57,902 nt of DNA from Moniliella sp. 'wahieum' (Eukaryota), in contig RSEE01000085.1 of NCBI GenBank assembly GCA_003971905.1, forward strand, positions 248,001 to 305,902. Reading direction: 5' to 3'. A model generated the notes under the pieces. The model saw nothing but the letters and a program-made list of their open reading frames with translations. It ran no database searches and was not told the origin of the DNA. Numbering within the stretch: the first letter of the stretch is position 1; each line of letters begins with the position of its first letter. The position numbers and the translations under genes are program-made. Below, one piece after another: positions 7,364 through 48,731 of this stretch.

Positions 7364-8753
7364 ATGGGTCGCAAGTCTGCACCTGCCACACGCGCCGCCG
7401 CGCCCAGCAAGAAGGCTGTGCCTGCCAAGCCTGCCAAGAAGGCTGTCAAAGTGTCCAAGAACCCCGAGCCGGAGCAAGATGTCGATTCTGCCGATTCGGA
7501 GGAGGAGGAGGAGGACGACGACAACGATGACTCGGAGGAGGAGATTAATGAGGAGGAGATGCAAAACCTCATGGCTGCACTGAAGAGGCAAGGTGTCGAA
7601 CTCCCTACGGGTGAGGATGAGGATGATGAGGATGATGGGGAGGAGGAGGAGGGTGATTCAGAGGAGGAAGAGGAGGAGGAGGAAGACATGGAGAAGCCCA
7701 TGTCTAAGCCCACCCTGGCTGAGAGCATTCTCCGCAGCGGTCTCGTTCCAACCGAGTCTGGGGAAGATGACGAGGAGGAGGACGAGGAGGAAGACGAGGA
7801 GGAAGATGAGGACGTGGAACTGGACCACATCAAGGGGAAGTATCTCCTGCTGTCTTGGCTACCAAGCACAACCGAGTACGGATCAACAATGTGGTTGCGC
7901 TCAAGGCTTTGACTGAGGCCATTTCGCTCAATGCGTGGCCAAGGGCCCCCCCTTGGCCTGGACCGAGACGATGGATGTGTCTTGGCCAGAGAACGTAGCG
8001 GAAGAAGTTGGTAGCCCTCGAGGATGACTTGAAGCGGGAACTTGTGTTCTACCGACAAGCCCTTGCCGGTGCTGAGGAAGGTCGTCGTCGCCTAGCCAGG
8101 CTGGGGTGCCTCATTCGTCCTAAAGATTATTTGCCGAGATGGTCAAGTCGGATGAGCACATGGAGCGGGTCCGCCAGCGCATGCTGGATGAGCGTGCCGG
8201 AATCAAAGCGTCGGAAGAGGCCAAGCGTCAACGTGAGCTCAAGAAGTTCGGCAAGAAGGTCCAGGTGGAGAAGCAGTTGGAACGTCAAAAGCAAAACGAG
8301 AGTTTGCCGACAAGGTCAAGGATCTGAAGCGCAGTATGTAGACCCGTCCCTTCCCCCTCACACAACCGGCGTCATCTCTGTAAGGATCGCTGTGCTGACT
8401 GACCTTTTCCTGCCTTGTCCAGAGCATTCGGGCGGTGGTGACGATGGGTTTGATATCCAGTTGGCTGATGTCATGGAGGGCGAAGCGCCCCCCGCGGCGT
8501 GCGCGGCGGTTCGGCTGGGCGCGGGCGTGGTGGGGGCAAGCATATGCCCCGCTCGGCGCGCGATGCCAAGTACGGCTACGGGGGCAAGAAGAAGCACTCA
8601 AGGCCAACACGCGCGAGTCGACGGAGAACTTTTCGTTTGGGGGCGGTGCGGGGGGCCGGCCAAGAAGCGCCGCATCTCGGGCACGGCGGGCGTGCGTGCT
8701 CCCTCGAGCAAGAAGAACCGGCCGGGAAGAACGCCCGCGCGGGAAGGAGGTAA
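7364..8753 (+). CDS. EBP2: rRNA-processing protein Ebp2 (frameshifted)
   Basis: Acidic N-terminus; DDLKRELVFYRQAL, RPKDY(F)AEMVKSDEHMERVR, RQRELKKFGKKVQ; intron 8334..8422 (GTATGT...CTGAC...CAG); C-terminal RDAKYGYGGKK and RPGKNAR motifs. Confidence 0.92.
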
Positions 8754-17173: not shown

Positions 17174-17263
17174 TATAGTGCAAGTAGATACTGTGCAGTT
17201 GTGCGTTTTGTCTGAGCGTTCAGATGAACGTCGCCCATGAGACTCTTCAACAAGTTCTTCCAG
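17174..17263 (+). repeat. 90-bp exact dispersed direct repeat, copy 1 (copy 2 at 35851..35940)
   Basis: TATAGTGCAAGTAGATACTG...CAACAAGTTCTTCCAG is identical at both sites; the flanks differ on both sides. Confidence 0.95.
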
Positions 17264-17969: not shown

Positions 17970-18584
17970 ATGGCTCCTACGAAGAAGACACAGCGTTCCG
18001 TCCTCAAGGACGTCGTGACCGTGAGTATCCTGCTGGGACTCTGAATGCCGTCCTTTGCATCCCGAGATGCATGAAGGTCTGCCGGTCGACGCCTCGGTCC
18101 CGGTCTCTGTAAGAGGCCGGTACCCTCCCCCCTTAGGGGGGAATCGTCGAGAGCGTTTGGCAGGTTTTGCCCTTCGCTTGGCTATTTTGCCCTGTGCGCA
18201 TTACGACATCGCTTGGTCTGCTTTGGGTGTGCCCGATTGGCTAACTTGTTTCCTTTGTTTTGGTTGGTAGCGCGAGTACACGATCCACTTGGCCAAGCGT
18301 GTTTTCCGCATGCAAGACAAGAAGACGGCCCTCGTGCCATCAAGGAGGTTGTCCGTTTTGCCCAGCGCGCTATGAGCGTCAAGGACGTTCGCATCGACCC
18401 TAAGCTCAACGAGGAGATTTGGAAGTTGGGCGTCAAGTCGGTTCCGCGCCGGATTCGGGTGCGTCTGGAGCGCAAGCGCAATGACGATGAGGACGCCAAG
18501 GAGAAGCTTTACGTTGTGGCCACGCCCGTGTTTGGCATCACCTCGTTCAAGGGCCTCGAGACTGTCGTTATTGACCAGGAGTAA
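17970..18584 (+). CDS. RPL31: 60S ribosomal protein eL31
   Basis: [24 protein letters not shown] across intron 18021..18270 (GTGAGT...CTAAC...TAG); [41 protein letters not shown]. Confidence 0.97.
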
Positions 18585-19952
18585 ACTGTTGAATACGCTT
18601 TCTGTCCCCGTGTCATCATGCCGTCCCCTAGGATATACTCATCTCCTTACTTTGGTCGGCCACACTTTGTGGCCCGTCCGCGACCGTGGATCCCCCACAC
18701 CAAAATATGAATACCTGCCTCGCTCATGTGCTTGCCATGTAGTTGTTTCTGTATGTTGGGCTGGCCGAGTCGCAACCATAACCTTAGCCATCGATCAAGG
18801 CAAGCCGTCAAGTTCCAAGAGAGGCTTTCTGCTTTGGCCAGTGTAGGTGCCTGTCAACTGCCCCCCGATCACATGTATGCCAACGTTGCTGCTGTGCATA
18901 TCTGATTCGATTCCAATCTTGAAGATAGCTCGGCGCAATGAGGTTGTTGCATGGATTCATTGGATCGGTCGTTGGTTGAATGATGACGAAATCGCACATA
19001 CGCTCCATCGTCCTGACATCGGCCATCAGTGCGTCTCAGTAGGCCTCAGACCTCAGATCACAGACTTCAGAAGGCGGGTAGGCTCCACTGCACCAGATTC
19101 GCCACCAAGGTTCGCGCATCGGGGGGGACGTGCCACAGTGGGAGATAGGAGATCATAGAACTGCTGTGGCGTGTTACCAACGGATGGTTAGTAGGGAGCC
19201 ACAGTCCGATGAGTTTGGTACCCATCCATATTCAATGGCCCACTTGCCGCACCTTCCTTCCCACCCCCCTCGTAACTCAGTGTAGCTTTCGCGCAACTCA
19301 TGGCTCCATATCGCGCCTCGCTGCGCGCACAGCCAGTCTTCCTATAGCTGTCTCTCCCCCCTTGGGTCGGGAGTCGCTGCCACCACTAGTACCATGGTTT
19401 GGTGATGGGCATGCGCAGGCTGGTAGGCGGGTAAAAAAAATCCATACAAACCGTCATAGAGCGACTAGCGGGGAAACGGCGGGGCAGAGCAAAGCATGGT
19501 TTGGTAGGCGAGAAACAAGGGAAGGAAGAGAACAGCGATCAAACAAAGAGCAAAAGAGGAACAAAAGAGGAACGGAAGAAAGGCAGGAGTAAGGGGCATG
19601 GAGCAAGGGGAAAGGGGCAAGGAACAAGGAGCAAGGGAGACAAGGGGCAAGGGAGACAAGGGCAACGGGCAAGGAAGGGCGAACGGGGAGAAAAAAAGAG
19701 AAAGACAAAACCAAAGAGGGCGCACGCAGATCTTCGCACCAGGAAACAATGAGGCTCGTAAATCGTAACCATGTCAAGACGTGTGCGGGGTAGGGAACAT
19801 GCACACTTGGTCCACCTGCTCCAGCCGAAGGCGTGGCTGACGACACCGGAAAGAGCAGGGGCAGGGACAGGGATCAGGAGGGGGCTCGCCTCAGGCCCGC
19901 TAAAGGGCCAGAGGGGACCAAAGAAGGGAAAGGGAAAGGGAAAGAATGGGGG

Positions 19953-22900
19953 TTAATTGTACCACCGCTCCTGAGGCGGGGCGTGGTAGCCCTGCCCAGC
20001 CTGCGGGGCCGGGGGCTGGGAAGGGAAGTTAGAGTAGGGCATGGTTTGCGTAGGAGCGGGGTGGTGGGCCGAGGGGTGGTACGCGTGGCCAAGGTAGGCG
20101 AGGGGGAGAGGTGGTGGCCTTGGTGCGGCGAAACGGAGGGGTCGGTAACATGGCCCACATGGGGCGGAACATGGTTCATGTGGCCGGGCACGTGCGCCAT
20201 GTGGCTCGCAGGCGGGAAATGGGACGGAGTGACAGGCGGCGGGTAGATCCCGTAGCCATCGCCTTGACGCGGAAGAACAGGATCGTAATAGTACGGTCCA
20301 GGGCGTTGACGCGGTCCCGGTCGACTGCCTACCGGCGAGGGCATCGTGCCCCCCTTGCGGCCCAGCTCCCGCAATGGGCGGCAACCCGGGGGAGTAGGAC
20401 CCAAGGACAGCCGCCGATCCACCGTGTGGGGGGGCAAGACACTCATCCCTCCCATCGGGTCAACGCTCACCCTTCGATCCGAAGGGGCAGGCGCGACGTG
20501 GAACCGGGCCGGGCCCAGCGGGATGACCGGTTGACGTAGGCGGAGGGGGCGAATTGGGATCGACAAACATGTGCGCCTGCACCGGGTCCGAGGGGGTAGG
20601 GGAGGGGCCATACAACCCAGCTGACGGGGCCAGACGCGCGTTGCCTGGTCCAACAAGGGGGTTGGATGCCAAGGCAGGATCGGACTGGCGCATGGTATAC
20701 GACGGAAGGAAGCGCGTGTCGCTGTCGGTGGGAGAAAACGCCGTAGGAGCCGTAGTGCCCGCGGCGAGATGTGCATTCGGAAGGGGTGGCTCCAGTACGC
20801 TGGCCCCCGTAGAGGCTGGGGCGCCGTGAGGTGGCAGCGGGTTAGGCGGCTGAGCTGGTAGCTGGGCCTCCTCGGGGCTCAGCGACGCATCCGTCACGCC
20901 CCGAGCCAACCCCGAAGCGTGGAGCTTATTGCTGGCCCCGCTTGCTGAATCGCCGCGGGAGGTTGCACCGCCGGGGCAAGTTTGCGTCCTGAAGCCCGCC
21001 TTCCTCCCGCCCCGGTCGCGTTGGGTCCGGCCGAAGTTGCAGAGGAAGCATCGGCCGGCTCCTCGACTGTCCCCTCATTGTGAAGGAAGCTGTTCATCGA
21101 GGCCTGCGACACCCATCCTCCCCACCAGACCGCCTCATGCGGCGCCATCAGGTTGAGTCCATACCGACTGCCCTGCAGCAAGCATCGATCAACCCCCCCT
21201 TGCGAGGCTGAGCTGGGTATAGTCTCCTCCAAGTCAGGAGATTCGCCCAAGAACCTGGGCGCGAAGAACGGCCCAAAGCACCTTGCGGCGGCACGCCCGC
21301 TCCAACCGAGAGAGAGAGAGAAGGCCCGCTCGACGTGTCTAGACCGGCGAGACGAAAGAGTTCTTTCATCTGGTCAAGCAACTTGGTCCCATACATGCGT
21401 GAATGCGGAGCATAGAGGTTGGTCTTATTGAAGGAGGGAAAAACGAGGAACTTGGGTTCCAGCGGCTGGTTGCCATTAAGCCGGACACAAAATTGGGCCC
21501 AACGCGTAATAGTGCCAGCGGGATCCAGCGTTGGCTTTTCGGCCTGGTACTGGAGACAGTACGTCTTGGGCTGCCGATCGTTGTTTTCTCGCCAGGGTAG
21601 AGTGACCACGGCGGTCGGGGTAGGCGTAGTTTGGGTCGACAGCGCTGCCGGGTCCATCGGTGAGACCGAGCGTACCCTTCAACAGTTTCGTAGTGGCCTC
21701 GGGCGAGACAAACTTGCCAGTGTAGTCGCTGAACGAGATGTTCTCCCACTTGAGCAAGAGCAACTCATCGAGGCGCGTCCAGAGCAAGTAGCTGAGGGTC
21801 AAAAAGTGTGCATAAACAGATACAGCACCAGCTCCCGGGAAGACTTGTTGTTCGTGATAGCGTCCTGAACAGACGACATGCATGAGTCAGTAAGAATACC
21901 AAGGGACGAGGGCTGGGGAAGTAGGGCGGGGCAGATGTTTCACACGCACCTCATCCATCGTCTCGTTGCGCAAATATGATAGGACTACGGCCAGCTCAGG
22001 ATAAAGGAGGGGCTTGACTTTCACATGCTCCGAGTCGCGCCGGCGCCGGCGTTCCCCGCCAGTGCGGGAAATGGAATTGTACCGAGCACGGTACCGCTCC
22101 GAGAAACAGGGTTTCCTTTTGCGTGACGCTCATTGAGGTCCTGAATCTGGTCCCAGGCAGCCAATTCGCGCTTCAGACGAAACTTAAAGTAAGCGGCTAG
22201 GGCTGAATTGACCCGACTCACGGTATTGTACGACAAGCCGCGGTCCACCGCATCATCAATGTACAGCAGCATCGCGTCCAGCGTCAATTCCGACACTTGA
22301 TCAAACGAATCGGCAAGCTCGGGCTTGTGGGTCGCCAGCCATTTTTTCATCGTGACAATCGTATCATCATACTGCCGCAATGTACTTTCCGATGGACTTT
22401 GAGTCCAACGGGAACCACGTGCGACAGTGGGACCAGTACTTGGGGACTTGCGTACCGAACGACGACGCGGGGCACCCGACGGCGCCCTCGCTGTCGAATG
22501 CGGATCGGCAGCCACGTCGGGCTTGGCACCGGTGAGGGCCTTGGTACTGGAGCTGCGCCTGCGCGCGACAGAGGCGGGGCAGGAAGAGAGACCGAGGGGA
22601 CCGAGGAACGATGGATAGGGGAGATGGCTCCGACGTTGGTCGTAGTGGAGCGACGGCTGATTTGGAGCAGGGCCGGGTCGGAGTAGGAGAAGGTAGGGGG
22701 GAGGCAGGCGGGGGCTGGGATTGCGCTTGCGCTTGCGATTGCGCTTGCGATTGCGACGGCAGTTGGGGTGCACTGCGGCGATTGGTAGGCGCGCTGCGCA
22801 GGCGGGAAGGGTGGGTGAGGTGCGCTGGTAATAGTATTGGTCGGTATGGGGGGCAACGGCATTGGGCCCCGTGCTAGGATCCGAGTAAGGTGGGCCCAAG

Positions 22901-23108
22901 GGGCCTTCGGACGCGGAGGCACCAACAGGCGCACCCGCGGGACCGGACGACGGGCCAAAGGGGAGGAGTCCCAACTGGGGCCCGACAAGGCAGGGAGCAC
23001 AGCAGAGGCGGCAGGCATGATCGGGCCGCGCGTGGACTGGCTACTGGCGTTTGTAGGGCTGGTGGGGCGAACGATCTGGTAGGGTGTGTATTCGGGTGCG
23101 GGGGGCAT
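19953..23108 (-). CDS. Crypton-like tyrosine-recombinase-fold protein with long Pro/His-rich N- and C-terminal extensions; catalytic His and Tyr apparently substituted
   Basis: Helical core-binding region (TLRQYD...SYNTVSRVNSALAAYF...W...GNP), intron 21865..21949, LLWTRLDELLLLKW (first catalytic Arg), LDP...W, LVFP, YTQLSL(R)KGG at the HxxR box, and WWGGW...SMNSFL at the Tyr box. Assembled across several indels. Confidence 0.75.
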
Positions 23109-24899
23109 GGGGTGAAGCAGGTCGGACACGCGACGTGACGCGAGCAGGCCGTCGATCGGGCGTGCTACGTACGGACAGCGGCAGCAGCAATGGGCACAGC
23201 AGGCTGGCTGGGCTCAACAGCAGCAGCAGCAGGAGAGAGAACAGGGCCCGCAGCCGAGGCGGGGTGCGTGTGGGGGGCGGCGAAAGAAGGCGAAGGGGAG
23301 GGCGGGTGGGCGGGGGTGCCTGAGCGGTCTCGCGGGTGTGGGTTGGGACAGCAGCAGAAAGGAGGCGGAAGAGGTGGGGCGGAGGGGAGCGAGCTGACAC
23401 AGCGAGCGGAGCGGCCGGAGGAGGAGGCAGAAGGGCACGGCGGGGATGGAGGTGGGGCGGAGGCAGAAGCGAGATGGAGAAGGCAGAGCGGATGGAACGC
23501 AGCGGCAAAGACCGAAGAAACGCCCAAGACAAGCGTAGGCAGGCAGGCAAGGAGGGGCCGGTGCTTGGACCGAGTGCAGGCAAGACACGACGACAGAACA
23601 CCCCAGCCAGTCCGCAGGCAGCACGCCAGCCAGCAGACCACAGGCCCACAACCGTCGCAGCGCCCAGCCAGGCCGAGTGCTGGTGCCCAGCCTGCAGCAG
23701 CCGGCAGCGCGTACGCCCGCAGCAAGGAGCAGGCAGGCCGGCCGCACCAGCCCTACGTAGCACGCGCCCCCCCACGCACGGCACTGCAGCACCCACCTCC
23801 CAGCCACCGCAGCGGTGACGGGCAAGTGTGAGGCTGGTGCGCCGCCGAAGCGGTTAGGGACGCGTGACGCAGCTCCCCCCACCGACCGGCCGACCGACCA
23901 AGAGCCCGCGCCTACGTTACCCCTTGCGCCTGCTCCGCGGTCCCTCGCACGCAGCGTGCCAGCAGGGGTGGATGCTGCTGAGCGCTGATGCGCGGATGCA
24001 TGACCGCGGGATGGGAACGGTTGATCGCACCAAGCGATCGCTGCCACCGGCCACCCCTGCAGACGCCCGCCACCGCAGCCCACACTGCCCCCACGGGTGC
24101 GTCTGGTGCGCCTGGGCGCCCCCACGCCGCCGGTGGCTCTGCACCACCCCCGGTCCCACACGGCAAAACTGACACCGCACCGCAGGCACTGCAGCCATCT
24201 TGGGCCGACGCCCCTATGTAGAGGACCGCTGACTGCCACACACGACGCATGACTAGTGACTAATGGTCCGCAACCCCTTCCCCACAGCCTGAGGCGGGTA
24301 CCCTCCAGCGCCTCCCCTGTCTCGTCGCCATCCCAGATCCAATCGGAATCCGGCCAGGCAGGGCGCCAGCCTCGCCGCCAGCCCCTGTGGCCAAGCACCT
24401 GCCGCGCACCAGCGCTGTGTCAGCCACGGAATCTTGTCCGCCCGCTCGTTCTGTTTGCAGATCGAAGACAACCGGCCGATGGCAGTAAATCGAGCAGACA
24501 GCATGGTACCGGGCGGTCTGTCCTGGGGTGCCGGGGATGCCTGCGGGGCCAAGTTGGGCGCGGTGAAAGCGGCAGCGTGATGCATGAAGGGCGACGTGGC
24601 GCACCCTGGCACACCCGTTCTTTGGACATGGGCATGGGCATGCAGCATGCAGCCGCACCGCGTACATGGCCAGCCTGTCGCACCCACCAGCCGCAAGCGC
24701 GCTGCTGCCTGCGCCGACAAGCGACAGCTGCATGGACAGTGCGCTATCGATATCAGCGCGTGTCCCCCATGGCTGAGCTGGTGCCAGGGCGGGACGCAGG
24801 CATTGCCTCACACGGGAACATGTGCTGCTCCCCTGGCACATGGACAGCCTTCCGAAATTTACACAGCAACAGGGCCAGCAGCCATGTGTTGTTGCCGAG

Positions 24900-27800
24900 G
24901 CTGTTAGCCGGTCACGCCCCGATCACTCGATCACCGCTCGCCAATCATGATGCATGACCGGATGACCATCGATCTTCGGCCGTTGTACCCGTAAAGCGTA
25001 ACGCCCAAGTCGTAACCGGGTGGCATCGATCATAGATGTCTCAAGTGCACAAATTCATCAAAGGGCAGCACAGGCCTAAAATTCACGCAGCCCCAGCCGG
25101 CAACTCGTACCCGGTACCCGTGGGAGCGAGCGCTCAGGCCACAGGCCGAGCGCTGTGCCTCAGCGCTGACATGCTGACATGCTGGCAGTCGACAATCGGC
25201 AACCGATAATCGATAACCGGTACCGCTAAGCGCTAAAAGCTAGCGCTAACGTCTAACGGCTAACTCTGGCTGCTCGCATGTTTTAGGATCGATCCTAGCT
25301 ATACAAGCAAAGAAGCCTTTCGCATTCATATCCCAGCTGCGGGGTTTCTTTCTACGCTCTCATCTTCCCGGCCTCCCCAGCCTCCCCTGGGGTCTGGGAT
25401 GAGTATATCCTTGCGCTGGCTTGAATATTGAATTGACATGCAATTGACGTGTTGATAACGCTTCTCTGGCATGATGCGGTCAGTCATCATACATCATGCA
25501 TCAACGTTCAACGTTCAACGTTCAACCACATTCGTCACAGCGTCACTGTCACTATGTCACTAGCTCTTTGCGTGTGAGATCTAGAGCTGAGCTGCTCAGC
25601 ATGGGAGGCGTGACGCGGACTCTGCATGCTGGGCGCGCTCGCATTCCATCGAATCATTAATCGTTGGCATCAATTGATGAACGATAATCGATGATCACGC
25701 GTCGCGTAACTCCGGCCCTGTGATGCATGATGCCCAGCCACTGCTCAGCCATGCACCAGGCTGGGCGCCGGCCGTGCCTCGGTCCAGGCCGCCTGGATTC
25801 CGATCAGATCTCTCGCATGTCCCTTTCAAGCTTCACGCTTCACGCGGCACGCGTCCCGCGTCCTGCGTCCTGCCCCACCTGTCCCTGCCAGTGCCCAGAT
25901 GGACGGCATCCAAGCTCCGTTCGACGGGGGCAACAACTTCGCCACCAACGTACACGCGGCTGATTACGAACTTGTGCACTGTGCAGCCATCAACGCGTCC
26001 CTCGACTCAGTACTCACAGCTTACAGCTTGAAGCACTGAGTTCGGGCGCCTGAGCGCGGGCTGCGCCAGGCTGCGGCGTCAGGGGCACACCCCTTCAGAA
26101 CACTACCCATCGTGGCATAGGCGCATAGGCCTCATGCTCAGCCTGAAGCTTGAATCCTGGGACCTGCGAGTGAGCGGGGAGGCACTGCGGCTCAGCAGTT
26201 CGCGTGCAGCGTAACGCGGTGCATGCTACCAAGGGAATGGCGCTGGGCACTCGGCCTCATCGATCATCCGCGCAGACCGCTTAAGCCCAGAGGCGCGTTT
26301 AAGTGTTAGCATGTTAGGGGTCTGATCGATCTGATTCATGATTTGGGCCTTCGAAGCACGATCTGAACGTGCCAACGTCCCATCGTTCAACGTTCCTCTT
26401 TCATGCACGTTGAACCGCTGAAATTACAGGTGCAGCCTGGTGCAGCTGCAGCTGCCAGTTCACGCGTTCACGTCTTCCCCAAACTGGCCAGCTGTCGCAG
26501 TGCTGTCCCTGAGTACCTGAGGGGCTGAGTGCACTTGTTCCTCGCAGCTGGCGGCATGCAGCAGGATGCAGCATGGGATGTAGATGCCTGGCGTCGATCC
26601 ATACGGCACCAAGAACAGCGGGACCCTAGTTCGTCTAGACCCTGCGATGTTACGTTTTATTAACGTTTAACGTTTAACGTTCAGTACGTGCAGTTCAACA
26701 CGTTCAACGTGTTCAACTTCGAATATTTGAATTACGGTTGAGAATCTGAAAACAGAGATCAGAGTCTAAAGAAACCGCGGGCCATTGAAATTGTTGAGCG
26801 CTGCTTTCTTTTAACGGGCTACCGGCTACAAGCTACCGGTTACCAGTTACATAGTTACCCATGATGTACCGCGGGGGCGCGTGCCGTGTACCACCAGGCA
26901 AGAATCGAGAAGTGGGATGGCGATGGCGAGTGAGCCGGTCAGATCCAGACCGAAGGCCTAACCGCTAAGCCCGATAAGATCGATAAGACCGGAGGCACAG
27001 GAGCTCAGTTTCTAGCGTAAGGTCTAAGGGGCTGCTGTATTGGTACTGCAGAGGGTCGAAAAGGGTCGGAATGTATTGCGTGGGCCGACAGCGGCTTTAC
27101 GCGGGTAGGCTTACGCCCGTTACGCGTTGTGCGGTACCTACTTAGCGCTTAGTTCCACGCGTTTCATCGATTGTATTGATCATCGATCATCTTCTTGGGC
27201 GAAATTGGCGGAGGGCGTAAGTATGGGGACAGTGTACCCCCATCCGGGCTCCCTCAGCCTCATACATAATTGATCTCAGAACTGTGACTCAGTACTCATC
27301 CATCTCATCTCGTCTCTCTCTCTGGCTTTCAAATTTTGAGGTCAGCTGGGGCGCTGAGGTGCTGAGGCGCTGAGGCCTTCCGCTCACGCGCTCACGGCTC
27401 GACGATGCTAGTGCATGATGGACCCAGGTTCGAAGCTCGTCCCGTAGGCTTGTGGCCAGTGCCCTATCGAATCCCAAGCTAAAACCCAAAGCCAGCGGTC
27501 AGCCGGTCAGTGCTAAGCCTGAGCGCGTCGAGCCAGCGGCAAGTCCTGCGATGTCCTGGCGAGTACCGAGACCGAATCCTAGGACCTAAACGCAGAACGC
27601 GGAACGCCTGATGCCTAACAAGCCGACAGGGTCAAAACGCCACAGCAGCCACAGTCTGGCGCAGCTTGTCGCAGCGCGTGCATTCAATAATTCAATGGCC
27701 ACTGCATCACGTGGCGTCATGCATCGTGCTCCCCGAATCGGAATCACCCATGCATCATGCGTCACAAATCCGCTTAATCACTTAATGGATAATCCTTTAA

Positions 27801-29400
27801 TCACTTAGGCACCCGGTCAAGTCACTAGTCACGTGCTCCTCGCGTCACATGTCACAGTCGTATCGCGTGTCATGCATGTCGCATGTCACATGTCGCATGT
27901 CACCGGATACGTGATCGATGATCGATGAGATCGATGATCGCTCCTTGAATCGATGGATTTGAAATTCTCAGGTCGGATAAAAAGGAGGTGCGCGGGTGGC
28001 AAACAGATGGATGAGATACAGCCCTACGTAGCCCCTTGCCAGTCCACAGTAACCGGTGACATGCATGACTATTTGTCTACATCACGTGTCACAATCATAG
28101 TGTGTCAAAAGTATAACGGCTCCTGTGCCTTTGTCTCGAAATTCATACGCATACCGAGTACCGATCCCTGTAATGTATGTAACCGCTGCATTGATCATTG
28201 ACTCAATACTCATACTCAGCGATCATCGATCATTGATCATTGTATCATACACCGCACATCATGCATCATGTATCATGCATCATGTGCATATTATTTTCTC
28301 ACACTACATAGCTTGTGAACCAATTCAGGCCCAGACCCTCCCGTGCCGTTGGAGGCAGTACGGGCCGCACCTTCCCAAATGCAGTCGCGGCCCACAAGGG
28401 CACAAAACAAAACGGATGTATTTGCATCTGGGATCTGAGATCCTGAGATCCGACCCCTGTACGTAACAAAACCCCAGCTTTTTCCGGCTTTAAAATTTAA
28501 GCGCTAATAAGCTGCCTCTCTCACCGCCTCCTCCCTCGCCTTCGCAGCAAGCAAGGCTCGCTAGGCTCGCCATCTATACCATTGACCATCCTGTCCTTTA
28601 CTTATTCATGACCGACATGTGACACGCATGATACGTGTCCTTTTTGAAGCTTGACATCCACGAGCGCGTTATATGTTTTACCCAGGTATATGGGGGAACA
28701 GAACACCCTGGACCACCCCCACTGAAGGGCGACACTGCCATTTTCTCCATTCTGGACTTGTTTGTGCGAACATGCGCGCAGCTATCGACTATCCAGCTTC
28801 CAGAGCTAGCGCCGCTTCCGTCGGTTCTTCGTCGGTGCCGGCACTGCCTATTGAATCAACGGTCACAAACGTCAGCGCGTTAGGTGTTCTGAGTGCACTG
28901 ACTAGTCAGTAACTAGTAACTAGTAACTCAATAACCAGTACTCCGTACTCAGTACACTAAGTACTCCAAACTCGGTACTAACGCGGGACGCGCGTTATGC
29001 GTTACGCGTGTCGCGTTTTCAAAAGCGTGGGGGTACGTGACGCGTGTGAGTGCAGAAGACGCGCGTGAGGCCTGAGGACCAGTGGATAGTCCCTAATCTC
29101 AGGGGAAATGAGTATATGAGTACTCAACTGAGTCCTACTGCGTACTGAGTTCAGTACTCACCAGACTGAGTCAAGCTTCAAGTCTTGAAGTGGCGAGAGT
29201 CCGAATAGGATGGGATGATCTACTTCATGATCGACAGAGCGCCACCAACAGCGCTTCGCCTCGACCTGATGTGTTTATAGCTTCACATGTCACATGTCAC
29301 AGTCGTTGTGCATTGCATGTCTCCATGTGTTTGTGGCTCCGCCTCGCTTTGGGTTCCGTAGAAACGGTGGATCCTCCGTTACGCGTTACGCGTTATACGC
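24900..29400. repeat. Non-coding region dense in 7-bp-period palindromic microrepeats
   Basis: AACGTTC x3 (25503), AACGTTT x2-3 (26662), ATCGATG x2 (27914), ACTAGTA x2 (28912), ACATGTC x2 (29285), ACGCGTT x2 (29381); no credible ORFs. Confidence 0.8.
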
Positions 29401-31398
29401 CGTTCCATAGTCCGATTATACTGCGAAAGTATCCGGCAAGTCATTCGGAGAATGAACTACCCAGAGAGAGGGTGGACTTATGGGGGAGTGACGGATGCGT
29501 ATATTGTAAGTGCTGATCTGATGAGAGTTGAGGGTATAGGGGTAGGAGGGCGGCAGCAAGGGACGGGCTAATGGACTGTGGGGGGGGGGGGGGGGGGTTA
29601 ACGCACTCATACCGGGAACGTTGAAAATGGGAAAGGGCATCAGATGGAGGGGGGCGATAGACGAAGGAGGTTAATCAATCTGATGGAAGAATGAGTTACA
29701 TTTTGTGAAACGCGGGCCAGGGGTGTATTAGGGGGGGATGTATGGGAGGAGAACGTTTGACGACGAAGACGCAAACAGCAACATACTATAGCAATAATGC
29801 GTTGGAGAGCCATACTCGTGTTACAGATTCAATAACCCATTCCGCAGAGGGTTGGTATTTATACAGGATGAAGGTTGCCCTCTGTAATACAGTGATGGCG
29901 CAGTAGCGACGTATGGAAGAGCGATATCGGGGGAGGTTGGTGACGGTGGCGGGGATAACCAGTAGCTCCTTGGGAGGGCGGGTAGGACGGGTTAGAAGGC
30001 GAAATATAACACGGGCATTATGGGCAATCGATTGTCCGTCGGCCCAAAGCCCATCGTGTTAGGCCACCACATGTGACCACGAAGGTCTCGACTCTACCCA
30101 AGAATCGATTTTGCAAGAATGACATCTTCAACTTCATGAACCGGAATTAGGCGGCAGGTCTGAATGAAGAGGTGTTACACTGATCGAGAGTGAGAAGCCG
30201 GGCAAGGGGCAGACAGGCGCAATGAGCCGAGACGCGGCAGGGTGCGGTTCCGAAAGGATGGGTTATAGTAGTATGCAGTGACGGGATGGAATATATCACA
30301 TGAACACGCACGATAGAGGGTACCCTCACCTTGAGAGGGGATATAGCTGTTCCGGAGGATGGTTTTATAGAGAGTGACGTTGTAGTTCCGTGTCCCAGGT
30401 GATTGGCCTGTAACTCAGTAGTGCTGCATTTGTAATATCTCGATCGTACGGACAGTAGAGATAGATGCCACATGCTTGCGGCCTCTAGTGACGCGGTCTG
30501 ACGAGTTTTGGTACGTCCCGCGAAGTGCGAGAGTGCGCCCGCCAGAGTGTGAATAGGGGTTTGGACTACATTTACTACTACTAGGCTACACTCGCTACTA
30601 CACACCGGTTATACTAATGCATATTAGTACTTAGTACTTAGTCCAAACAACACAATATAGGTTTCTGCAAGCCCCGCCGCGTATACTGCATCCATATCAT
30701 TGACAGAGTTAAAAAGGCTGGGACAGGGAAACGCTATACCTAAACCGACCGGATCATCTTAGGAGTTTGTGCTAAAAACTGGGTTTGTGGCAAGACAAAA
30801 CACACGGGGGGTGTGAAAAATTGAAACAGGGTCATGGCGGGATTGGAAAATGGGTAGATGGGCTGGATAAGCGGAGTGGGGCTGAAGAGGCCGGTGGCAG
30901 AAACCCGACGCTTTGGCGACAGGCATTTGGGGCTGCAACCACGCCTCACCGTCTGGCCTCTTACTCCATAACCGCCCCTTCGCTTCGGCCATGCCCCTGC
31001 GTATGGACGCATGACAGTCATCCGTCACCTGGCTCGTTCGCCGGCAAAAGAACTTCGCATCATATCAAGCGCCGCCCATGGCCCCATCTCAGATCCCACG
31101 TCTCGAGAGGTTCCGGCTGATGGGTCCGGGATGCGCACCACCCTATGGCCTGGCTACTGATGACTGACGACTGCACCAAACCTATACTCATCCTCATCGC
31201 GCAATGCAGTGTCCATTTGGTTCTCGCTCAATCACTGTCACTGTCCGAAGAGTCGTCGCTGTTGCCCCCTCCTCCGACAGCGACCACGGCAGGTGTCTTC
31301 TTCTTGGCGCGCGCTCGTCCCACAGGTGCATGGCACCGTTCGTTGCAATCCTCTGGGCCACGTCTTGCTCAGCGCGTTGGCGCTCAGTTCCGGGGACT

Positions 31399-32900
31399 TC
31401 AGCTGATCCTCAAGTCCATGTGCGGCTTGTGGTGTGGTGGACTTCGCATAGCGTATTCGTTCAATACCAGCCGCTTCCCGTTCTTGGCTTTAAAATGAGA
31501 CGCCGCCGGGATGAAGTACTCTATCGCCTCGTTCTCCCCGAGATAGGGTCCTTCTCGTAGTTGTGCACCAGTACTTTCTGGCCGTCCTGCTCTATCATGA
31601 ACTTCTTGGTGCAGGCGTGCTGGAGAGGCGCCTCGCTGCCAACATCCTGTGGTCAATGTCCCAGTGTCAGTACTTGATGAGCAATCGTCACGCAGCCGGA
31701 TTCAGCACTCATCGGTGCTCTCCGTCAATAGGGCAAACTCTTCAGGAGCATCACCATCATCGAGTTCGCGGACAATGCGGCAGCCTGAGCGATGCGTGCT
31801 ACTCGTGATGATGTACGGCCTGTACCCGACCCAGGCAGCCTTCTCATCCAACGGGTCGTGCCCAATCCGGAGGATCTTGCCAATAACAAAGTCGGTGGAC
31901 GCGCTGTACTCGGCCGACTTCTGGCCGATCGTCACGTTCATCCCCACACGGATCATCTCCCCTGTAGCGATAACAGCCGCCTTGCCCACCAGGTACTGCG
32001 CCCGCACCTTGACACGGCCCGCCAACTGGAAATGACCCAGCTCCTCGTCGGTGAGGTTGTTGCAACCCACCGAGGATTGGTTCTTGGCTGGGGCCAGCAC
32101 CACTCGTGGAATCGCCATGCCATCAGAGTCGTAGCCGGGCTCTTCCTTCCCTTGCTCCAGCACCCCGGGAGGAGCCCCAGGCCGAGCCACCACCGAGCCG
32201 TCACTAGACACATCGTACCCCGGTGAAGAGTGGTGCAGAATCTTCTCGGCGACCAGGACGTTGTACAAGGTGTCACGCGGGAGGTTCTGGAAGTTGCAAT
32301 GGGCAACGGACGCACGGTGCTTCACGCGACCCTCGAATCTGGCAGCGTCCGTGTTCTGGAGAGGGCCGAACAATTCGAGCGCATCAGACGTATGCGCCAG
32401 GAGGAGATGGAGCTTCGGTCGCGTCGCGATCATGGCGCTGTCGGGGCCGAGTCTCGAAAGGCGTTCGATCAGTCGGTATGCAGTCTGGGTCGCCCGGTAC
32501 TATTCCAGCCATAACAGGCATGTCAGCGTCTAAACCCGTATATCAATCAAGGCTGTGGGACTTACCATGAACTGCGCCCTGGCCTGCCCGGCAGCCGGGT
32601 ACCATGTCCTGGAAAGCAAACCATGCAGGCCGGCTGCCGCGACGATAGCGTCATAAAGCGGAATCGGAAACGTGAACTCCTTCTCATCGTTGGCCTCTTT
32701 TCCGGTCGCGAGGATGGGGAGTGCCGCGAATGGGAGAGCCACAAGCATAGTGCGCACATCCTTCCCAACCCCACAGTCTTTAGGTTAGCCAACAAACCCC
32801 TAGCTCGGATATTGGTGCCCTCTGCGCTCCGTGTTGAGATCGCTGATGAATATCAGCCTCTTGGTTGCGGATTTGCTCGACACGCTCATTCGGGGCGCCG
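31399..32900 (-). pseudogene. C-terminal part of a fungal En/Spm(CACTA)-like transposase, fragmented
   Basis: RPKLHLLLAHTSDALELFGPLQNTDAARFEG...CNFQNLPRD matches the K-x-H-L-L-x-H...FGP...FE motif of CMC-type transposases; also GKDVRTMLVALPF upstream and LVLNEYAMRS downstream. In-frame stops are present and no N-terminal catalytic part is recognisable. Confidence 0.65.
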
Positions 32901-35553
32901 AGCGGGTTGTCATGCGCCCGCGGGCGGCAAAGGACACGCCCGTGGGCTCTTGAAGGTGGTCCAAAGGAAACACTGGGCTACGTCTGGCATAACTCGTCCT
33001 CGGCCATGGTAGTGTCTACAGGCGAGGAGGCACGGGAAGCAAGGGAAGGCGAGCATGTGTCAGGTGTGGCTGGGGCATGCTCGCATCTTCGGCCACCTCG
33101 TCAATGGCGTGACTGGCCCCCATCCTCGCACCCAGCACCACGTTGTGGGTATCTGCGCACCTTCGTGTGCATGCATGAAACCGGACATCGGTTGAACTGG
33201 GCAAGCAGGGAACTGGTACAGCAACCTCTCGTCCTGCTTCATCGTGGACCAGGCCGCGGGAAAAGGTACAGCAGATGTGTCTGTCCTATTGTGCACGCGT
33301 GCGAGCTCGTTCCATCGGTCGGCATTGCATTTTGGTGAGCCGACGTCGAAACATGGTGGTGGCGACTTGGTAAAAGGATGGGCGAGATGGGTTGTACATG
33401 ATATGCATTGGTGGGTGCTTTTTTTGTCACAGGTCCGGCAGACGATCGCGGCCCCTTCTAACCTTAAACCTTGTCCCCTCTAACCTTAAAACTTGCCCCC
33501 CCTCCCAGAGACGCACGCTCTCCCGCTTCTTTGATGCTCTTCCAAGGCGTATTACATTCGTCATCCCCTATCTGAAGATGAGAGTGGCGCAGTCCAGATG
33601 GCCACCCTGATGGGTGATGCGGTAGCACTATAGTGTTGGCAGTGCGGTGGTCGAATACGCCAGCCAACGACACGCCTAACACAAGGGTGCATGAAAGAGC
33701 AACAGAGGCTATATACCTTAGGGCTGCGGAGATCATGGACAAAGCCAACACAAAAGCTAAATGGAATGGTTACAACATCGGAGCTCCTTGACTCGACCAG
33801 GGGCTATCGCCTTGACTTTGATGATGTAACACCGTAGGTTACTAGTCACTAGTCACTAGTATAGCTCAAGTGAGGATAATCGTGACCTGTATAGTGATTC
33901 ACCCGGCTATGGAGACCACAATGGATGCTGAAGCGTTTGGGACAGTAGCGTAGTCGATCGATTGCGGGCGAGAGATAGGCGTTGGTGGTAGGAAGCAAGA
34001 CGAGGGCTACTGGACAAGGCTACTAGTCGTTGACTTACGCGCGCATCAGCAATCTTCGGGGAGCCCTTGGAGTCTCGGGGCTAGAGAGGCCGCAAGTGCG
34101 CCGCGTTCGGTGAAGCCAGTCACCGTCGCAACAGACAACTAGTACCGCAGCAAGTCGCAAATAGGCAAAGTCAAAATGGCGCTCTTGATTGAGGTGATTA
34201 GACCCTCGAACACTCTGCTGCAGGAGACCGCTATAGTGTTGAGGCGTTAGACAGATATAATAGCTTACCTATAGGCCCCTGGCGTAGCCCAGATTGGCCT
34301 GTGCGCACAGATTGGCTGCGCCACACGCGCCTCCTTTTAACCTCCTGCTCCTCTGTGGTTGCATCCTGTCTCCTCACCACCGCCCCTCTCATTGCGTCCG
34401 TCGCAACCAGTATCCCATCTCTGCAGCCAGCACATCGAAGAGTGCTCTGTCCCACGGCGCAACAGCACCATCTTCTCCCTGAACATCAACATCACCATCG
34501 TTGCTGCCTGCACTGCTTACTGACCGCCTTGCTAGTCCCGCCCCTATCGCTCGGTTCTTCTCGCCTGGTCTGCATTGCTGCCGTACGTCTCCATTCCCTC
34601 TCCCGCCACACTCCGTCCTCCTCGCCTCGTCAGTATCGCTGGTGAACGCCCCCTCTGCCTCTCGCCCCGGCCCCCTCTCACTGTCTGCATTGCTGTTGTC
34701 GTATGTGTTCTCTTGCCCACCAGCGCTCTGTTGCTGACCCCGCGTACACAGACTCCCCTCGCGGGCCATCTTGCCCTCGTTTCACCTGATCCGCAGCGCC
34801 ATCGTACGTGCCCGCTTCCTCCGCATTCCCCACACTTCTGCTGACCTTGTGGGTCGCATGCATGACGTGCATGCACTTTTCGTTTCGCTCACCTTCGGCC
34901 TTGTCCGTCTGGTTCCATTTTGCCTCGCCTGAGGTCCTCTCGCTTGGCTCGTCTGTGCCTTGCCATCGTACGTCCCCCGTACTTCGCGCTTGGAGTTGTC
35001 CTGCCGCTGACACTGTCTACCCAGCTGCTGCATGCACGGAATCCCACGGTTGGTTCGTCTCGTCTTGTTCGCCTCGACTCATCTGACCTGTTTCGCCGTC
35101 GTACGTCCCTTCTCTGTTATATGCCAACGCTGTTCCTAACATTGTTCGCCCTACCAGTGTACATTCCGACTTCATCCCGCTTGCCCTCGCCACTGGCCGT
35201 CTTGATCGCCTGACCTGTGAGTCCGTCGCACATCATTTTCTGTGTCTCGCGCTAACCCTATGCTGCTGCTGACTTGGCCAGCGTCTCCCTAGTGCGCACT
35301 CCCCTCACACTAACCTGCCACTTTCTGAACCGCTCGCTGCTCTACTACGTTGTGGTGCTTCCGTCTGACGTCACACCTAACCGTGGTTGCCGTGTCATCG
35401 CTTCCCAGCGATCTTCGAAATTCTATATCTAAAAAATACCCCCTGCCTATAAATCTAGTAGTTCTGGATCGATGCCAGCCAGCCGGTTGGAGAGCCTACA
35501 AGCACGCATCCAATCAAAACAGCTAAGCGTTTGGGCACATTTGAGCTAAGGGC

Positions 35554-35850: not shown

Positions 35851-35940
35851 TATAGTGCAAGTAGATACTGTGCAGTTGTGCGTTTTGTCTGAGCGTTCAG
35901 ATGAACGTCGCCCATGAGACTCTTCAACAAGTTCTTCCAG
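35851..35940 (+). repeat. 90-bp exact dispersed direct repeat, copy 2
   Basis: Identical to 17174..17263; starts flush with the right TIR. Confidence 0.95.
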
Positions 35941-38016: not shown

Positions 38017-40954
38017 CTAGATCAGCGCCTCGATCGACGGAAGGCTAGCGTGCTCCCTCAAATGGCGCATCAAATTCGAAAGGTAAATATGAGTATGGCG
38101 CCTCCCCCCCCTAATCGTCCAACTGTCCCCCACAATGCACAGCTGACGCTTGGCTCGAGTCAAGGCAACATTGAGCCGACGAGTGTCTTTAAGGAAACCC
38201 ACATCATGGGTCCGGTTGCTCCGCACGAGGGTAACAATTACCACCTCATTCTCTCGGCCTTGCATCGAGTCGATGGAGCCAATGGCGAGGTTGGGGAAAA
38301 CTTGGCCAGACGAGCGGTGGAGCCCCCTTCGCGCATCACTTCCGTCTCCAGTAAAGCGCGCACCTGGGCCGTGTAGGGAGTCAAGATGGAAATCTGGTCA
38401 GGCGGACCCCATGAGCCAAAAGTTTGAGCACATGAGCCACGACCAGCCGCACCTCGGCTGGGTTACTCATGGACTTGGTAGGGCCCCCCGACGGTTCTGA
38501 TTCCCATAGACTGTACCCTCCCGTATCATAAAATACAAGCGCGCATCCCACTCAGTGTCATCCTCAGGCATATAACCATTGGCGAGCGCACCTTGCGTTA
38601 CTTTCTCGGTATCCTTGGCTCCTGCATTCTCGAGTGCATTCTGTTCTTCTTTTTTCTTGGCTCTCTTCTTAGCCCGTGCGTTCTTCTTCTTCTCCTTTTG
38701 ATTTTTGCCCGTGTCTTTGGAGGTATATTCCAAGTGGAACTTGTTCCATGGCTCCTCTGTGGATGGGGGCAGAAGTGGTATGCCAACTTTGGATCTTGTT
38801 TCCGACGTATTGACGAGACCCTTCAATCCAATTGATGCGTTGGACTTGTTCGCCCGCGCAGCCTTCTTCATACATGGACGTATTTGGGAAAGCCATGATC
38901 TCCTCATTGAACCGATACTGAACTCTGAGAAACGTCTTGATTCCGGGCCAGTCGTGGTACGCGTGCAATAAACGCTCAAACATGGTTTCTTGCTTTTCCG
39001 GAGGAAGAACGAGAACAGGGGGTCTGCCCCATTTCTACCTTTCTTGAATGAAGATGGAGGACGAAACAGCCCATCGTCGGATTGGAGAACTGGACCCAGT
39101 TGCTTCGGATCTCCTGCAATCACTACCTTGACAAGGGGGCCTTGGGGGTTAGGGCAAGCCCGGGTTAAGGGCACCCAACACAACGGTTCCATCGCCTGAC
39201 ACGCCTCGTCAATAATGATAAAATCGAATGGGCCACCCAGATTCTTGCGGCCGCTGTTGTGCAACGTACATAACACCACTTCGGCTTCGTGCCAATACTG
39301 AGGCCGAAGGGTGCTAGTAACGAATTCCACCAACAGATCTTCCTCCGATTCAGATGGAGAGGAGTGCTCATTGGAAGGAGCAGGAGAAGCTCCCTCATCT
39401 TGGTTGACACTGTCTGCGCCATCGGAATAGGATTCAGGAATAGGGCCTTTCTTAGACACATGATGAAAGCGTTGCATGTGCTGTACCACTTGTTTGGTCA
39501 TCTTCACAGGGCTCCCAATTCGGGCCACCTTGATGTCATGTTTGCGGAAAAGCTGGAACCAAGGTGTAGTGGGAGCCATCAGCCGCTCGGCAACCGCGTC
39601 GATGGCCAAGTTGGAAGGTGCCGTGACCAAAATTCGGGGGCGTCGATAATCGACCGTCGTTTCGCCGTCTGCGCGAAGAATCGGTTCGTTGCCAATCATC
39701 GTTCCTAGAACCAATTGAACGATCAGCTCCACCAGCGTCGTTGTTTTTCCCGGTACCAGGGGTCCGTGTAGGAGGTGGAAAGGAAGTACATCCGGTCCTA
39801 CCTCTTCCCCCTCAAATTGGGATGAGCGGATCAGATTCAGTATCTTCTTCGGGGTTGGTTTTTGCAAGGCACGACGTCTTTCTCTTCTCCCGCATCACTT
39901 TGAGTACCTCATTGATGAATGAGCATTGAGAACGAGAAAGAGTGTCCTTATTATCGTTTTCTTCTCACTTGTGACAGGTGTTGGGGGCATAATTCCTTCT
40001 TTTGTGGCTTATTGACATAGTACAGAGGGGGTGGATGATGGAGCGTTGAATTGCCTTGAGCTGCTCCTCGTTAATCCTTCTGTAAATACATCCAATGGAA
40101 CAGGCGGCAGGGACTCTGTTGCTTGAGGAGCACAAGTAAACTCATCCAAGCGAAGCACAGCACGCATGTGCCTAGAATGGGTACGGAGCTTGTCTGATTT
40201 GGCTTCCTCCGGCAATCCACCCGCTTTTTTTTGGAAGCAATGGGCTTGGTCTTGCGAGGGGTCTTGGTAGTCCACCTAGGCAAATCGACATCCAATGGCT
40301 CTGCCACCACTTCGATGGCATTCCGCATGATGTGGAAGAGGTCACAATCGCCTTTGGCTAGAAGATGTACTGACTTGGGCATCTTACCGGCAAACTGGCG
40401 GTTGAATTAGGGCCCATGTGCAAGCTTGGCGGGCGCATAATCATCTCCACCGTCTGCAGGGAAGTAGAACTCACCACGCCCACGCTTCAAAGTGGGGTTG
40501 GCGAAGCGCTGATGGCCCTCGGGCCCCTTGATTTGCTCTTTGTCTTCTTTGTCTTTGTCTTCTTTATTGTCTTTGTCTTTGTCTTCTGGAGTAGGGGGCC
40601 AGTACTCGGTCCAAGGCACGTCTTCATCCCGTAGACGCAGGCGGTACCCTTCTTCAAGGTATGCCAAGGAGGGTACGCGAAGTGATTGATGGCAAGAGCT
40701 CAAGGATGGGTGGAAGCCGTGCCATGAGTACCATGCGCGTTGGAGGTGCAGATGCAAAACCGCGAGTCCTTGCTTCTCGAGCTCCTCGGGGCATGGGGCT
40801 CAAATAGGATATGGTCCCGGGCCTGGATAGCGGCGAGCTCGTTTTGGACCAGGTCTGCCTGTTGCAGGATGAAATACGATGCGGCGTCCGTCGCTTCAGA
40901 TTGCAGTGCACTCTCAATTGCAGGCTGAGAATCCGCGTCCCCGTTTGCAGGCAT
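38017..40954 (-). CDS. HCS1: Superfamily-1 (Upf1-like) helicase, Hcs1/IGHMBP2-like (frameshifted)
   Basis: Motif I HGP(P)GTGKTTTLVELI, Ia ILVTAPSNLAID, II IIIDEACQ, III AGDPKQLGP, MFERL, LRVQYRFN, V QGRENEV, VI RRLNVALTRAKRQL; N-terminal helix followed by (ELEKQGLAV)LHL as in IGHMBP2/Hcs1. Confidence 0.85.
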
Positions 40955-47935: not shown

Positions 47936-48650
47936 GAGGACCTGCGAGGTACACAGTGGAAGCGCTGCTGCTTTCTCTTGTGTGCCCGCGTTCTTGTCTG
48001 AATGTCTATACCCTCTCCACATGAATGATGTGAACCACATGATGATGCTATCGAGCCTACTACCCACACCCTCAATTGTTGAATGCTCATGCTGCTTTTG
48101 ACCTTTGTTGTTCCCATCCTTCCTCCTCTGTATATCTCTATACTGATGGAGACTCCATAAATGGCCTCCATTGTATACAAACAGCTCTCAGAAATGGTGC
48201 AAACGGTGAAAAGAAAGTGTATGGAAGGTTTTAGGCCTTCGGGGGACGCCTGTGACATTTGGAAAGTTGGTAGTTGCACTCAAGAGTCATTCTTCCTCCG
48301 GCCAAGGCAATGCGCGGGCTCTACTACGCTACCAAGATCAACAGGATATGTAAGTGTTGGAAGCTTCTCTTCTCTTCGGCAGTGGAGATGATTCATCTCT
48401 TCGCTCACACAGTCAAGTCTCTACACTTTTGACAAGATCCGTATCCACTCTCATCACATCCATTTTGGAAGCAAATCAGGGAGGCAGAGGATCCTGGTTT
48501 GCTGGCGAGTCACATACTTCAGTCTTGAATGGGTTGGCACGAGAAACAATACACGTCGAAGGAAAGAGTCTGATACGCAATGTCCGGAAATGATATGCAT
48601 GCGATGGTAACATTTTGTCACATGCAGTGTGGTGTGAATTTAAGGACCAA

Positions 48651-48731
48651 GGACGGCTGGCGCAATGGTAGCGCGTCTGACTACGACTAGTTGTAATCAG
48701 GAGGTTGCAGGTTCGACCCCTGCGTCGTTCG
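48651..48731 (+). tRNA. tRNA-Arg(ACG) with 9-nt intron (48687..48695)
   Basis: Acceptor stem GGACGGC/GTCGTTC, D-arm GCGC-AATGGTA-GCGC, anticodon arm TCTGA-CT-ACG-A^A-TCAGG, T-arm GCAGG-TTCGACC-CCTGC; T7 Pol III terminator ~20 nt downstream. Confidence 0.95.

Follow-up and report, generated by a model that had tools for sequence, protein, structure and literature searches.

The domestication of tyrosine recombinase (YR) transposons, which turns them into noncatalytic proteins that bind DNA, is known from budding yeasts, where Gcr1 and Ndc10 are examples, and from animals, where ZMYM proteins and QRICH1 are examples. The genes for Gcr1, Cbf2/Ndc10, and Cdg1 in Saccharomycotina and the DUF3504 genes in animals are described as domesticated Crypton genes (PMC3212892). 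According to the same paper, Cbf2/Ndc10, Gcr1, Msn1/Hot1, and Cdg1 are derived from CryptonF elements and share a GCR1_C domain, and Cbf2 and Gcr1 do not preserve the catalytic site (PMC3212892). The DUF3504 (PF12012) genes, which are ZMYM2/3/4, QRICH1, WOC, KCTD1, and KIAA1958, carry noncatalytic Crypton YR modules joined to other regions in regulators of transcription or chromatin. According to that paper, the nucleophile Tyr and the second Arg of the active site have been lost from these modules, and in most cases so has the His (PMC3212892). The CryptonS elements of oomycetes and diatoms encode two-domain eukaryotic YRs without GCR1_C (PMC3212892), and they have so far been described only from stramenopiles.

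Here, we analyzed a gene on the minus strand (19953–23108) of a 57,902-nt stretch of DNA from Moniliella sp. 'wahieum' (contig RSEE01000085.1, positions 248,001 to 305,902), which is referred to below as the window and which provides all coordinates. An initial annotation made from the sequence of the window had described this gene as an apparently domesticated, catalytically altered, Crypton-like YR. The descent of the gene from a YR was supported by our data, and it is probable that a resident gene of the host, belonging to a small fungal family, is present at the locus, which would encode a domesticated, noncatalytic YR, likely acting as a DNA-binding regulator. Both the DNA binding and the regulatory role are inferred. 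The host-gene reading is favored because conservation among the relatives is domain-specific, short islands are shared by their tails, the intron site is common to them, the GC content at third codon positions (GC3) is similar to that of neighboring genes, and the searches returned no close relative with an intact catalytic site.

Among the described systems, the family looks closest to CryptonS by its motifs, which were compared by eye rather than by a statistical test. The features in common with the published CryptonS rows are the two-domain arrangement without GCR1_C, the box II sequence R-[RK]-G-G, an aromatic-rich stretch ending with G-x-W, and a Phe nine residues past this Trp (Trp+9) (PMC3212892). 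Additionally, the nearest named cluster in the ESM Atlas was an Oomycota core-binding-domain protein (score 0.97). On the other hand, this family differs from CryptonS in that it is devoid of the box II His and of a Tyr at positions Trp+9 to Trp+11, and in that it has long disordered arms, is apparently single-copy, and is conserved between species. The CryptonF-derived genes of Saccharomycotina differ from this family in their GCR1_C domain, which was not detected here, and in their host lineage, which is here Basidiomycota. Searches of the window pieces and of six relatives gave no Pfam match at E ≤ 1 to GCR1_C, Ndc10_II, or DUF3504 (PF12012), although a DUF3504/QRICH1 cluster was among the ESM Atlas feature neighbors (score 0.95). 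In contrast to the catalytic sites of Cbf2 and Gcr1 (PMC3212892), that of this family still contains Arg-I, Glu, Lys, Arg-II, and Trp, and the second Arg also distinguishes the family from the DUF3504 genes. The likeness to Cre, XerC/XerD, and lambda Int consists of matches to core-binding profiles, the alignment of the box I Arg and GGW to Cre, and the alignment of the box I Arg to lambda Int, all of which are weak. Those proteins differ from this family as active enzymes, which possess the His and Tyr and lack the long disordered arms.

The recombinase-like core and its active site

The coding region starts with ATG at 23108–23106, ends with the TAA stop codon at 19955–19953, and contains one intron. 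The position of the start codon agrees with the start of the relative P0001, and the C-terminal end is similar to the conserved ones of the relatives P0002, P0006, and P0008. The encoded protein consists of a two-domain YR-like core with a long low-complexity arm on each side. The core-binding (SAM-like) N-terminal domain of the tyrosine-recombinase type (21950–22419) carries the GNP motif (22116–22108) in its C-terminal block GNPCFS..RYRA.Y. The two reading frames of the core are joined at codon boundaries by an 85-nt spliceosomal intron (21949–21865, GTGCGT...CTGAC...CAG), which lies between complete codons. The catalytic-type domain (21041–21864) was defined by the alignments A2 and A3, a frameshift-aware alignment to P0002, hhalign comparisons to Cre and lambda Int, and ESM Atlas neighbors. 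It contains box I, WTRLDELL (21781–21758), with the Arg-I codon at 21775–21773 and the Glu codon at 21766–21764, followed by a candidate hairpin Lys (21567–21565), the LVFP sequence (21447–21436), a poorly conserved insert (~21330–21230), the RKGG sequence with the Arg-II codon (21204–21202), and the WWGGW sequence (21127–21113). Hence, each of the core motifs named by the initial annotation (GNP, WTRLDELL, LVFP, and WWGGW) was found in its place on the minus strand, and the clean spliceosomal intron that it had described was confirmed. The low-complexity flanks noticed in the same annotation correspond to a Pro/Ser/Ala-rich N-terminal arm of ~235 codons (22420–23108), delimited by frameshift-aware alignment to P0001, and a Pro/Gly/His/Tyr/Ser-rich C-terminal arm of ~360 codons (19956–21040), the sequence of which is spread over three or more reading frames of the assembly. 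Both arms could be aligned in outline with those of the relatives, and the N-terminal arm contains a hexamer tandem repeat (22719–22756).

To compare the active sites, the catalytic part was aligned in four genomes, which are represented by the window, P0002, P0006, and P0005/P0008 (alignment A2), with the window sequence read through its frame breaks. The data showed that the W-T-R-L-D-E-L-L sequence with Arg-I and the Glu three residues further on, the Lys in K-[ST]-Y, R-K-G-G, and W-W-G-G-W are invariant in all four genomes. Arg-II was assigned by its motif, on the basis of the corresponding rows for Cre and CryptonS. The family keeps five out of seven active-site residues, namely Arg-I, Glu, Lys, Arg-II, and Trp. 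When considered against the R-H-R-Y tetrad of active recombinases, both Arg-I and Arg-II are present, while the box II His and the nucleophile Tyr are missing. The box II His position is occupied by Val, Val, and Tyr in the relatives, and by Leu or Ala, depending on the frame, in the window, so that His is found in none of the four genomes. The initial annotation had read Leu at this position, and the CTC codon is indeed present (21210–21212). However, it belongs to a short third frame, YTQLSL, which requires breaks at ~21228 and ~21205, while the same DNA in the adjoining long frame reads LYPAQPRKGG, which gives Ala instead; neither reading contains His.

The positions Trp+9, Trp+10, and Trp+11 are occupied by Phe, Leu, and Glu/Gln/His, respectively, without a Tyr in any of the four genomes, and the Phe at Trp+9 is common to all four. 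In the window this Phe, which the initial annotation had noticed after WWGGW, is encoded by TTC (21086–21088) located exactly nine codons past the Trp of GGW, in the column of Tyr324 of Cre. A Tyr is present at Trp+6 in P0006 (one genome out of four). The identity of the column that corresponds to the nucleophile depends on the enzymes used for comparison. Cre has its Tyr at Trp+9. In the published alignment rows, the CryptonF sequences also show Tyr at Trp+9, after H-x-x-R and G-R-W, while the CryptonS sequences show H-S-F-R-R-G-G, an aromatic stretch ending with G-x-W, Phe at Trp+9, and Tyr at Trp+11 (PMC3212892). Hence, the replacement of Tyr by Phe is one of two possible readings of the alignment; the earlier statement that the nucleophile position reads Phe holds in comparison with Cre Tyr324, but in comparison with the CryptonS Tyr the corresponding column contains Glu, Gln, or His in this family. 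Under either alignment the sequences are firmly devoid of the nucleophile Tyr. The CTC and TTC codons are each one substitution away from CAC and TAC. The fact that both the His and the Tyr are missing from four out of four genomes indicates that their loss is genuine, as the initial annotation had proposed, and that it is a feature of the family rather than an error of the assembly.

Relatives and patterns of conservation

With the N-terminal domain as the query, a word-index search identified four relatives (P0001, P0002, P0003, and P0004) among 450 candidates. The closest of them by the core query of the word-index search was P0001 (90% identity, E 6.6e-55), while P0002 (68% identity, E 1.7e-36) is the 1323-aa hypothetical protein K437DRAFT_128645 from Tilletiaria anomala UBC 951. 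The word-index search with the catalytic piece, which covered longer proteins only, gave no match, but a later exhaustive phmmer search with this piece against 1.84 billion representatives found four matches at E ≤ 0.001 (P0002, P0005, P0006, and P0007). P0007 was judged to be a spurious repeat protein and was rejected. No catalytically intact close relative was present among the 1.84 billion representatives in the phmmer search, the profile word search with alignment A3 added no members to those already known, and metagenome scans for the locus encoding the relatives found none. In summary, the family occurs in the window, in T. anomala, and in three or four further assemblies. T. anomala, which belongs to Georgefischeriales in Ustilaginomycotina, is the host of the sole named member of the family, and the literature search found no paper naming this protein. 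The one paper found to mention both Crypton and Ustilaginomycotina is on rust-fungus transposons.

The ends of the predicted proteins coincide with the position of the intron. P0001 and P0004 end at the intron point, P0005, P0006, and P0008 begin just past it, and the Tilletiaria protein P0002 reads through it. P0004 and P0006, which are located on the same NCBI contig of 851,037 bases and meet at the intron, are probably the two parts of a single gene that was divided by automatic gene prediction, and P0003 together with P0005/P0008, which come from ENA, probably represent another gene split in the same manner. Hence, the intron site is common to the relatives, and because the gene is split at this conserved site, the family appears in protein databases as two orphan families with no relation to each other. 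The catalytic-type domain has no Pfam model. Each protein cluster at 90% identity contains one member on one contig, or the pieces of one gene. This observation is in agreement with a single-copy gene, as is the presence of one copy in the window.

The conservation among the relatives is concentrated in the folded domains. These domains are 51–83% identical, while the tails and the insert in the catalytic domain are 11–38% identical, with values of 11–26% for the N-terminal tails and 26–34% for the C-terminal tails. Nevertheless, the tails contain short conserved islands, which are an RGRPRK AT-hook in P0002 and P0008, a GSDPSSYA sequence in three relatives, and a terminal P-P-A-W..PR sequence, also in three. 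The C-terminal end of the window copy has a similar H-A-P-P...W sequence. In Tilletiaria and at least two further assemblies the gene keeps open frames, which are 830–1323 aa long. The GC3 of the YR-derived gene is 0.59–0.89, in comparison with 0.56–0.77 in the neighboring genes. Hence, the family shows features expected of a domesticated gene, which are orthologs across species, constraint on the folded part, and lost catalysis. The earlier proposal of domestication is consistent with the host-gene pattern seen in the shared intron site, the domain-specific conservation, the single-member clusters, and the neighbor-like GC3, while the integrity of the window copy is one of the points on which it stands less well. 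These data suggest that the cases known from budding yeasts and animals are joined by a new, previously unannotated family in Ustilaginomycotina.

Alternative readings of the locus

The integrity of the window copy is the basis of the alternative that survives best, which is that the family is domesticated, but the window copy is a true pseudogene, in which some or all of the frame breaks are real and the gene is dead in this strain. Overall, ~9–11 single-base frame breaks interrupt the gene in ~2.2 kb of the assembly; five are needed between 23108 and 21938 in the frameshift-aware alignment to P0001, and six between 21855 and 20925 in that to P0002. The most likely explanation is that they are single-base assembly errors. 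This is suggested by several observations: a single missing base fits nine out of 11 breaks, the conserved blocks are free of longer indels, in-frame stop codons are absent from the aligned frames, and the break between GNP and CFS at ~22108–22112 is located in a CCC run, where P0001 reads GNPCFS without interruption. The essential gene for the rRNA-processing protein Ebp2 in the window (7999–8750, plus strand) is broken in the same way. It is spread over at least three frames, and at nt 8130 position 77 of the Pfam Ebp2 profile ends and position 78 resumes in another frame, with no space for an intron. This seamless frame change directly shows that the assembly contains single-base indel errors, and it supports the earlier remark that indel errors dominate there. 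The core-binding domain of the window copy is also 90% identical to that of P0001, and the breaks at ~21228 and ~21205 are doubtful, because they may be artefacts of the alignment.

The distribution of the breaks, however, speaks against an intact gene in the window. Their density of ~4–5 per kb (~4 per kb without the two doubtful breaks) is above that in the neighboring genes, because the Aa_trans domain is unbroken over ~1 kb and the AAA_11 domain over ~0.7 kb. At the same time the density of homopolymers is alike in the YR-derived gene and its neighbors, and about half of the breaks are located outside runs of at least four bases. Since the breaks are denser than in the neighbors at similar homopolymer density, a true decay of the window copy was kept as an alternative, which we regard as unlikely. 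The AAA_11 domain belongs to an Upf1/Sen1-type helicase (38020–39894, minus strand) and is intact in one frame, while positions 2–43 and 138–194 of the AAA_12 profile are found in two other frames, which indicates further frame breaks or introns. The helicase was also considered as a second control for frame breaks, but its divergence from solved structures was too great for this purpose.

Another explanation regards the locus as the inactive remnant of a Crypton or some other YR transposon, without a host function. The domains of YR type and the intron, both of which fungal Cryptons possess, would be in line with a relic, as would the lost catalytic residues and the frame breaks of the window copy. 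Cryptons often have few copies, and they lack long terminal repeats (PMC3212892). In agreement with the earlier statement that no element boundaries are visible, the 57.9-kb window contained no second copy of the gene and no terminal repeats of at least 16 nt resembling element ends, in searches that were not aimed at 5–6-bp direct repeats or TATGG termini. An inverted pair bracketing the gene (19877–19896 and 24287–24306, 20 nt, 85% identity) was taken as a chance occurrence in GC-rich DNA. What is difficult to reconcile with a relic is that the same substitutions, intron site, and tail motifs are found in Tilletiaria and at least two further assemblies, in open frames of the lengths given above, that conservation is concentrated in the folded domains, that each genome has one cluster member, and that the 1.84 billion representatives contain no catalytically intact close relative. 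Hence, we consider a relic quite improbable, and a resident host gene remains the preferred reading.

A further alternative is that the YR likeness is restricted to the helical N-terminal domain, or arose by chance, and that the C-terminal region has an unrelated fold. The assignment of the N-terminal domain as a core-binding (SAM-like) domain of the YR type is well supported by profile matches. Among the Pfam models the nine window pieces matched only Phage_int_SAM_1, below its threshold (E 7.3e-4, 20.2 bits in comparison with the cut-off of 22.3). The same model was the top Pfam match in four out of four relatives that contain the N-terminal domain, and in P0004 it exceeded the curated cut-off (24.4 vs. 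22.3 bits). Positions 11–88 of the NCBIfam XerC/XerD profile, which are its N-terminal part, matched all four relatives (E 3.9e-5 to 0.034), and the only PHROGs match, also on the N-terminal domain, was the phrog_1 integrase (E 0.01–0.08).

The signals for the catalytic-type domain are weak, but mutually consistent. In hhalign comparisons, the box I Arg of the family was placed on Arg173 of Cre (E 0.03–0.04) and on Arg212 of lambda Int (E 0.01), and a second collinear alignment placed GGW...F on GGW315...Tyr324 of Cre (E 0.17). An ESM Atlas structure search with the atlas's own model of P0005 (predicted template modeling score 0.53) returned PF00589 clusters in five out of eight rows, with template modeling (TM) scores of 0.37–0.40 by query and 0.43–0.61 by row. 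In the feature search with the P0002 core, five out of seven named rows carried PF00589, PF02899, or PF12012 (scores 0.95–0.97), and the neighbors were eukaryotic YR, DUF3504, ALOG, and core-binding clusters. The order of secondary structure elements in one AlphaFold2 model, which is a low-confidence model, was a helix, three strands, and helices. When the two-domain model was searched with Foldseek, the six best rows were all Cre or its variant Tre (276–304 columns, E 0.6–1.9), and the best rows of VIA-align were also Cre.

Several results weigh against this assignment. The AlphaFold2 models were poor, with mean predicted local distance difference test (pLDDT) values of 37.1 and 38.6, built on shallow alignments of seven to nine sequences, and Foldseek with the catalytic-only model returned unrelated folds, a result that is meaningless at that model confidence. 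The catalytic domain of P0005 and P0006 had no match in Pfam, PHROGs, or NCBIfam, the A2 profile gave one chance-level row against PDB, and each of the hhalign, Foldseek, and VIA-align values falls short of the usual levels of significance. The N-terminal piece likewise gave only chance-level rows in a phmmer search against PDB, and tblastn of the catalytic piece against phages gave no match. Hence, the structural comparison with Cre and XerD that the initial annotation had suggested placed Cre in the top rows, but at E 0.6–1.9 and pLDDT 37–39, and its term Crypton-like is consistent with the motifs and the ESM Atlas leads, while it is not backed by a significant match of the catalytic domain in sequence or fold. 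Nevertheless, an unrelated fold would have to coexist with an N-terminal domain that matches YR core-binding profiles in two libraries, boxes I and II whose order and spacing are right in the alignment to Cre, YR clusters among both the structure and the feature neighbors, the order of secondary structure elements given above, and motifs that agree with the CryptonS and CryptonF rows. Since several independent weak signals are collinear and point in the same direction, this alternative appears very improbable.

The least credible alternative is a still active recombinase, in which errors of the assembly account for the missing His and Tyr, or the role of the nucleophile is taken by a different residue: CTC and TTC differ by one substitution from CAC and TAC, five out of seven active-site residues are retained, and P0006 has a Tyr at Trp+6, but four independent assemblies agree in lacking the box II His and a Tyr at Trp+9 to Trp+11, the Trp+6 Tyr occurs in one genome out of four, and the errors of this assembly are indels rather than substitutions.

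Possible function and neighboring DNA

If the folded core, in which the catalytic-type domain comes after the core-binding domain, is descended from a eukaryotic Crypton-type YR, the two domains could form a C-shaped clamp on DNA, similar to that of Cre or XerD, but without cutting it. Tyr-to-Phe mutants of Cre-type enzymes bind DNA, but cannot cleave it. Since the nucleophile position and its surroundings are devoid of Tyr, and another residue stands in place of the box II His, the 3′-phosphotyrosyl intermediate would not be formed, and DNA would be bound uncut. In active recombinases Arg-I, Glu, Lys, Arg-II, and Trp hold the scissile phosphate, and in this family Arg-I, Lys, Arg-II, and Trp may still touch the phosphate of the backbone. 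The core could then be a site-recognizing or architectural DNA-binding module, possibly bending or pairing sites, while the disordered arms might recruit partners, such as the transcription or chromatin machinery. In two of the relatives, the AT-hook in the arms could add contacts with the minor groove.

A more specific proposal, which is possible but which we hold only tentatively, is that the protein is a regulator confined to fungi of the Georgefischeriales type, for which a CryptonS-like recombinase was domesticated independently, and that it acts as a "frozen" clamp, in which the Arg/Glu/Lys/Arg/Trp pocket is under selection despite the missing nucleophile. Such a clamp would recognize specific sites in DNA and might also pair them, and these sites could be remnants of the ends of its own former element. 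If true, no earlier case of this kind would be known from Basidiomycota, and unlike Ndc10, Gcr1, and the DUF3504 genes, the protein would have retained most of the active site. The retention of five out of seven active-site residues together with the loss of the nucleophile could make the family a natural test case for selection on a "dead" recombinase pocket.

On its 3′ side, the YR-derived gene is adjoined by RPL31 (18075–18581, plus strand), and the 3′ ends of the two genes face each other at a distance of 1.4 kb. A purine-rich tandem repeat (19585–19674) with the unit AAGGGGC in ~11 copies is located between them. Upstream of the YR-derived gene, the region 23200–35200 has a high GC content (up to 66%), several of its reading frames are open, and none of its 46 open reading frames of at least 75 aa, counted on both strands, matches Pfam at E ≤ 0.001. 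An exact 90-nt direct repeat is present at 17174–17263 and 35851–35940, 18.7 kb apart.

The distal part of the window contains a segmental duplication of ~4 kb (44196–48366 and 52384–56504), which is 88.5% identical over 3.5 kb and 75.7% identical over a further 0.7 kb. Each copy of the duplication contains a GRDP-like gene, recognized by Pfam PF07173 at 46851–47591 and 54775–55500. A second duplicated piece of ~490 nt (49479–49966 and 57298–57784) is 93.8% identical. A tRNA gene was also found at 48651–48731 on the plus strand (Rfam, 49.6 bits), for which ARAGORN gave no anticodon assignment, and which may hold an intron or an assembly error.

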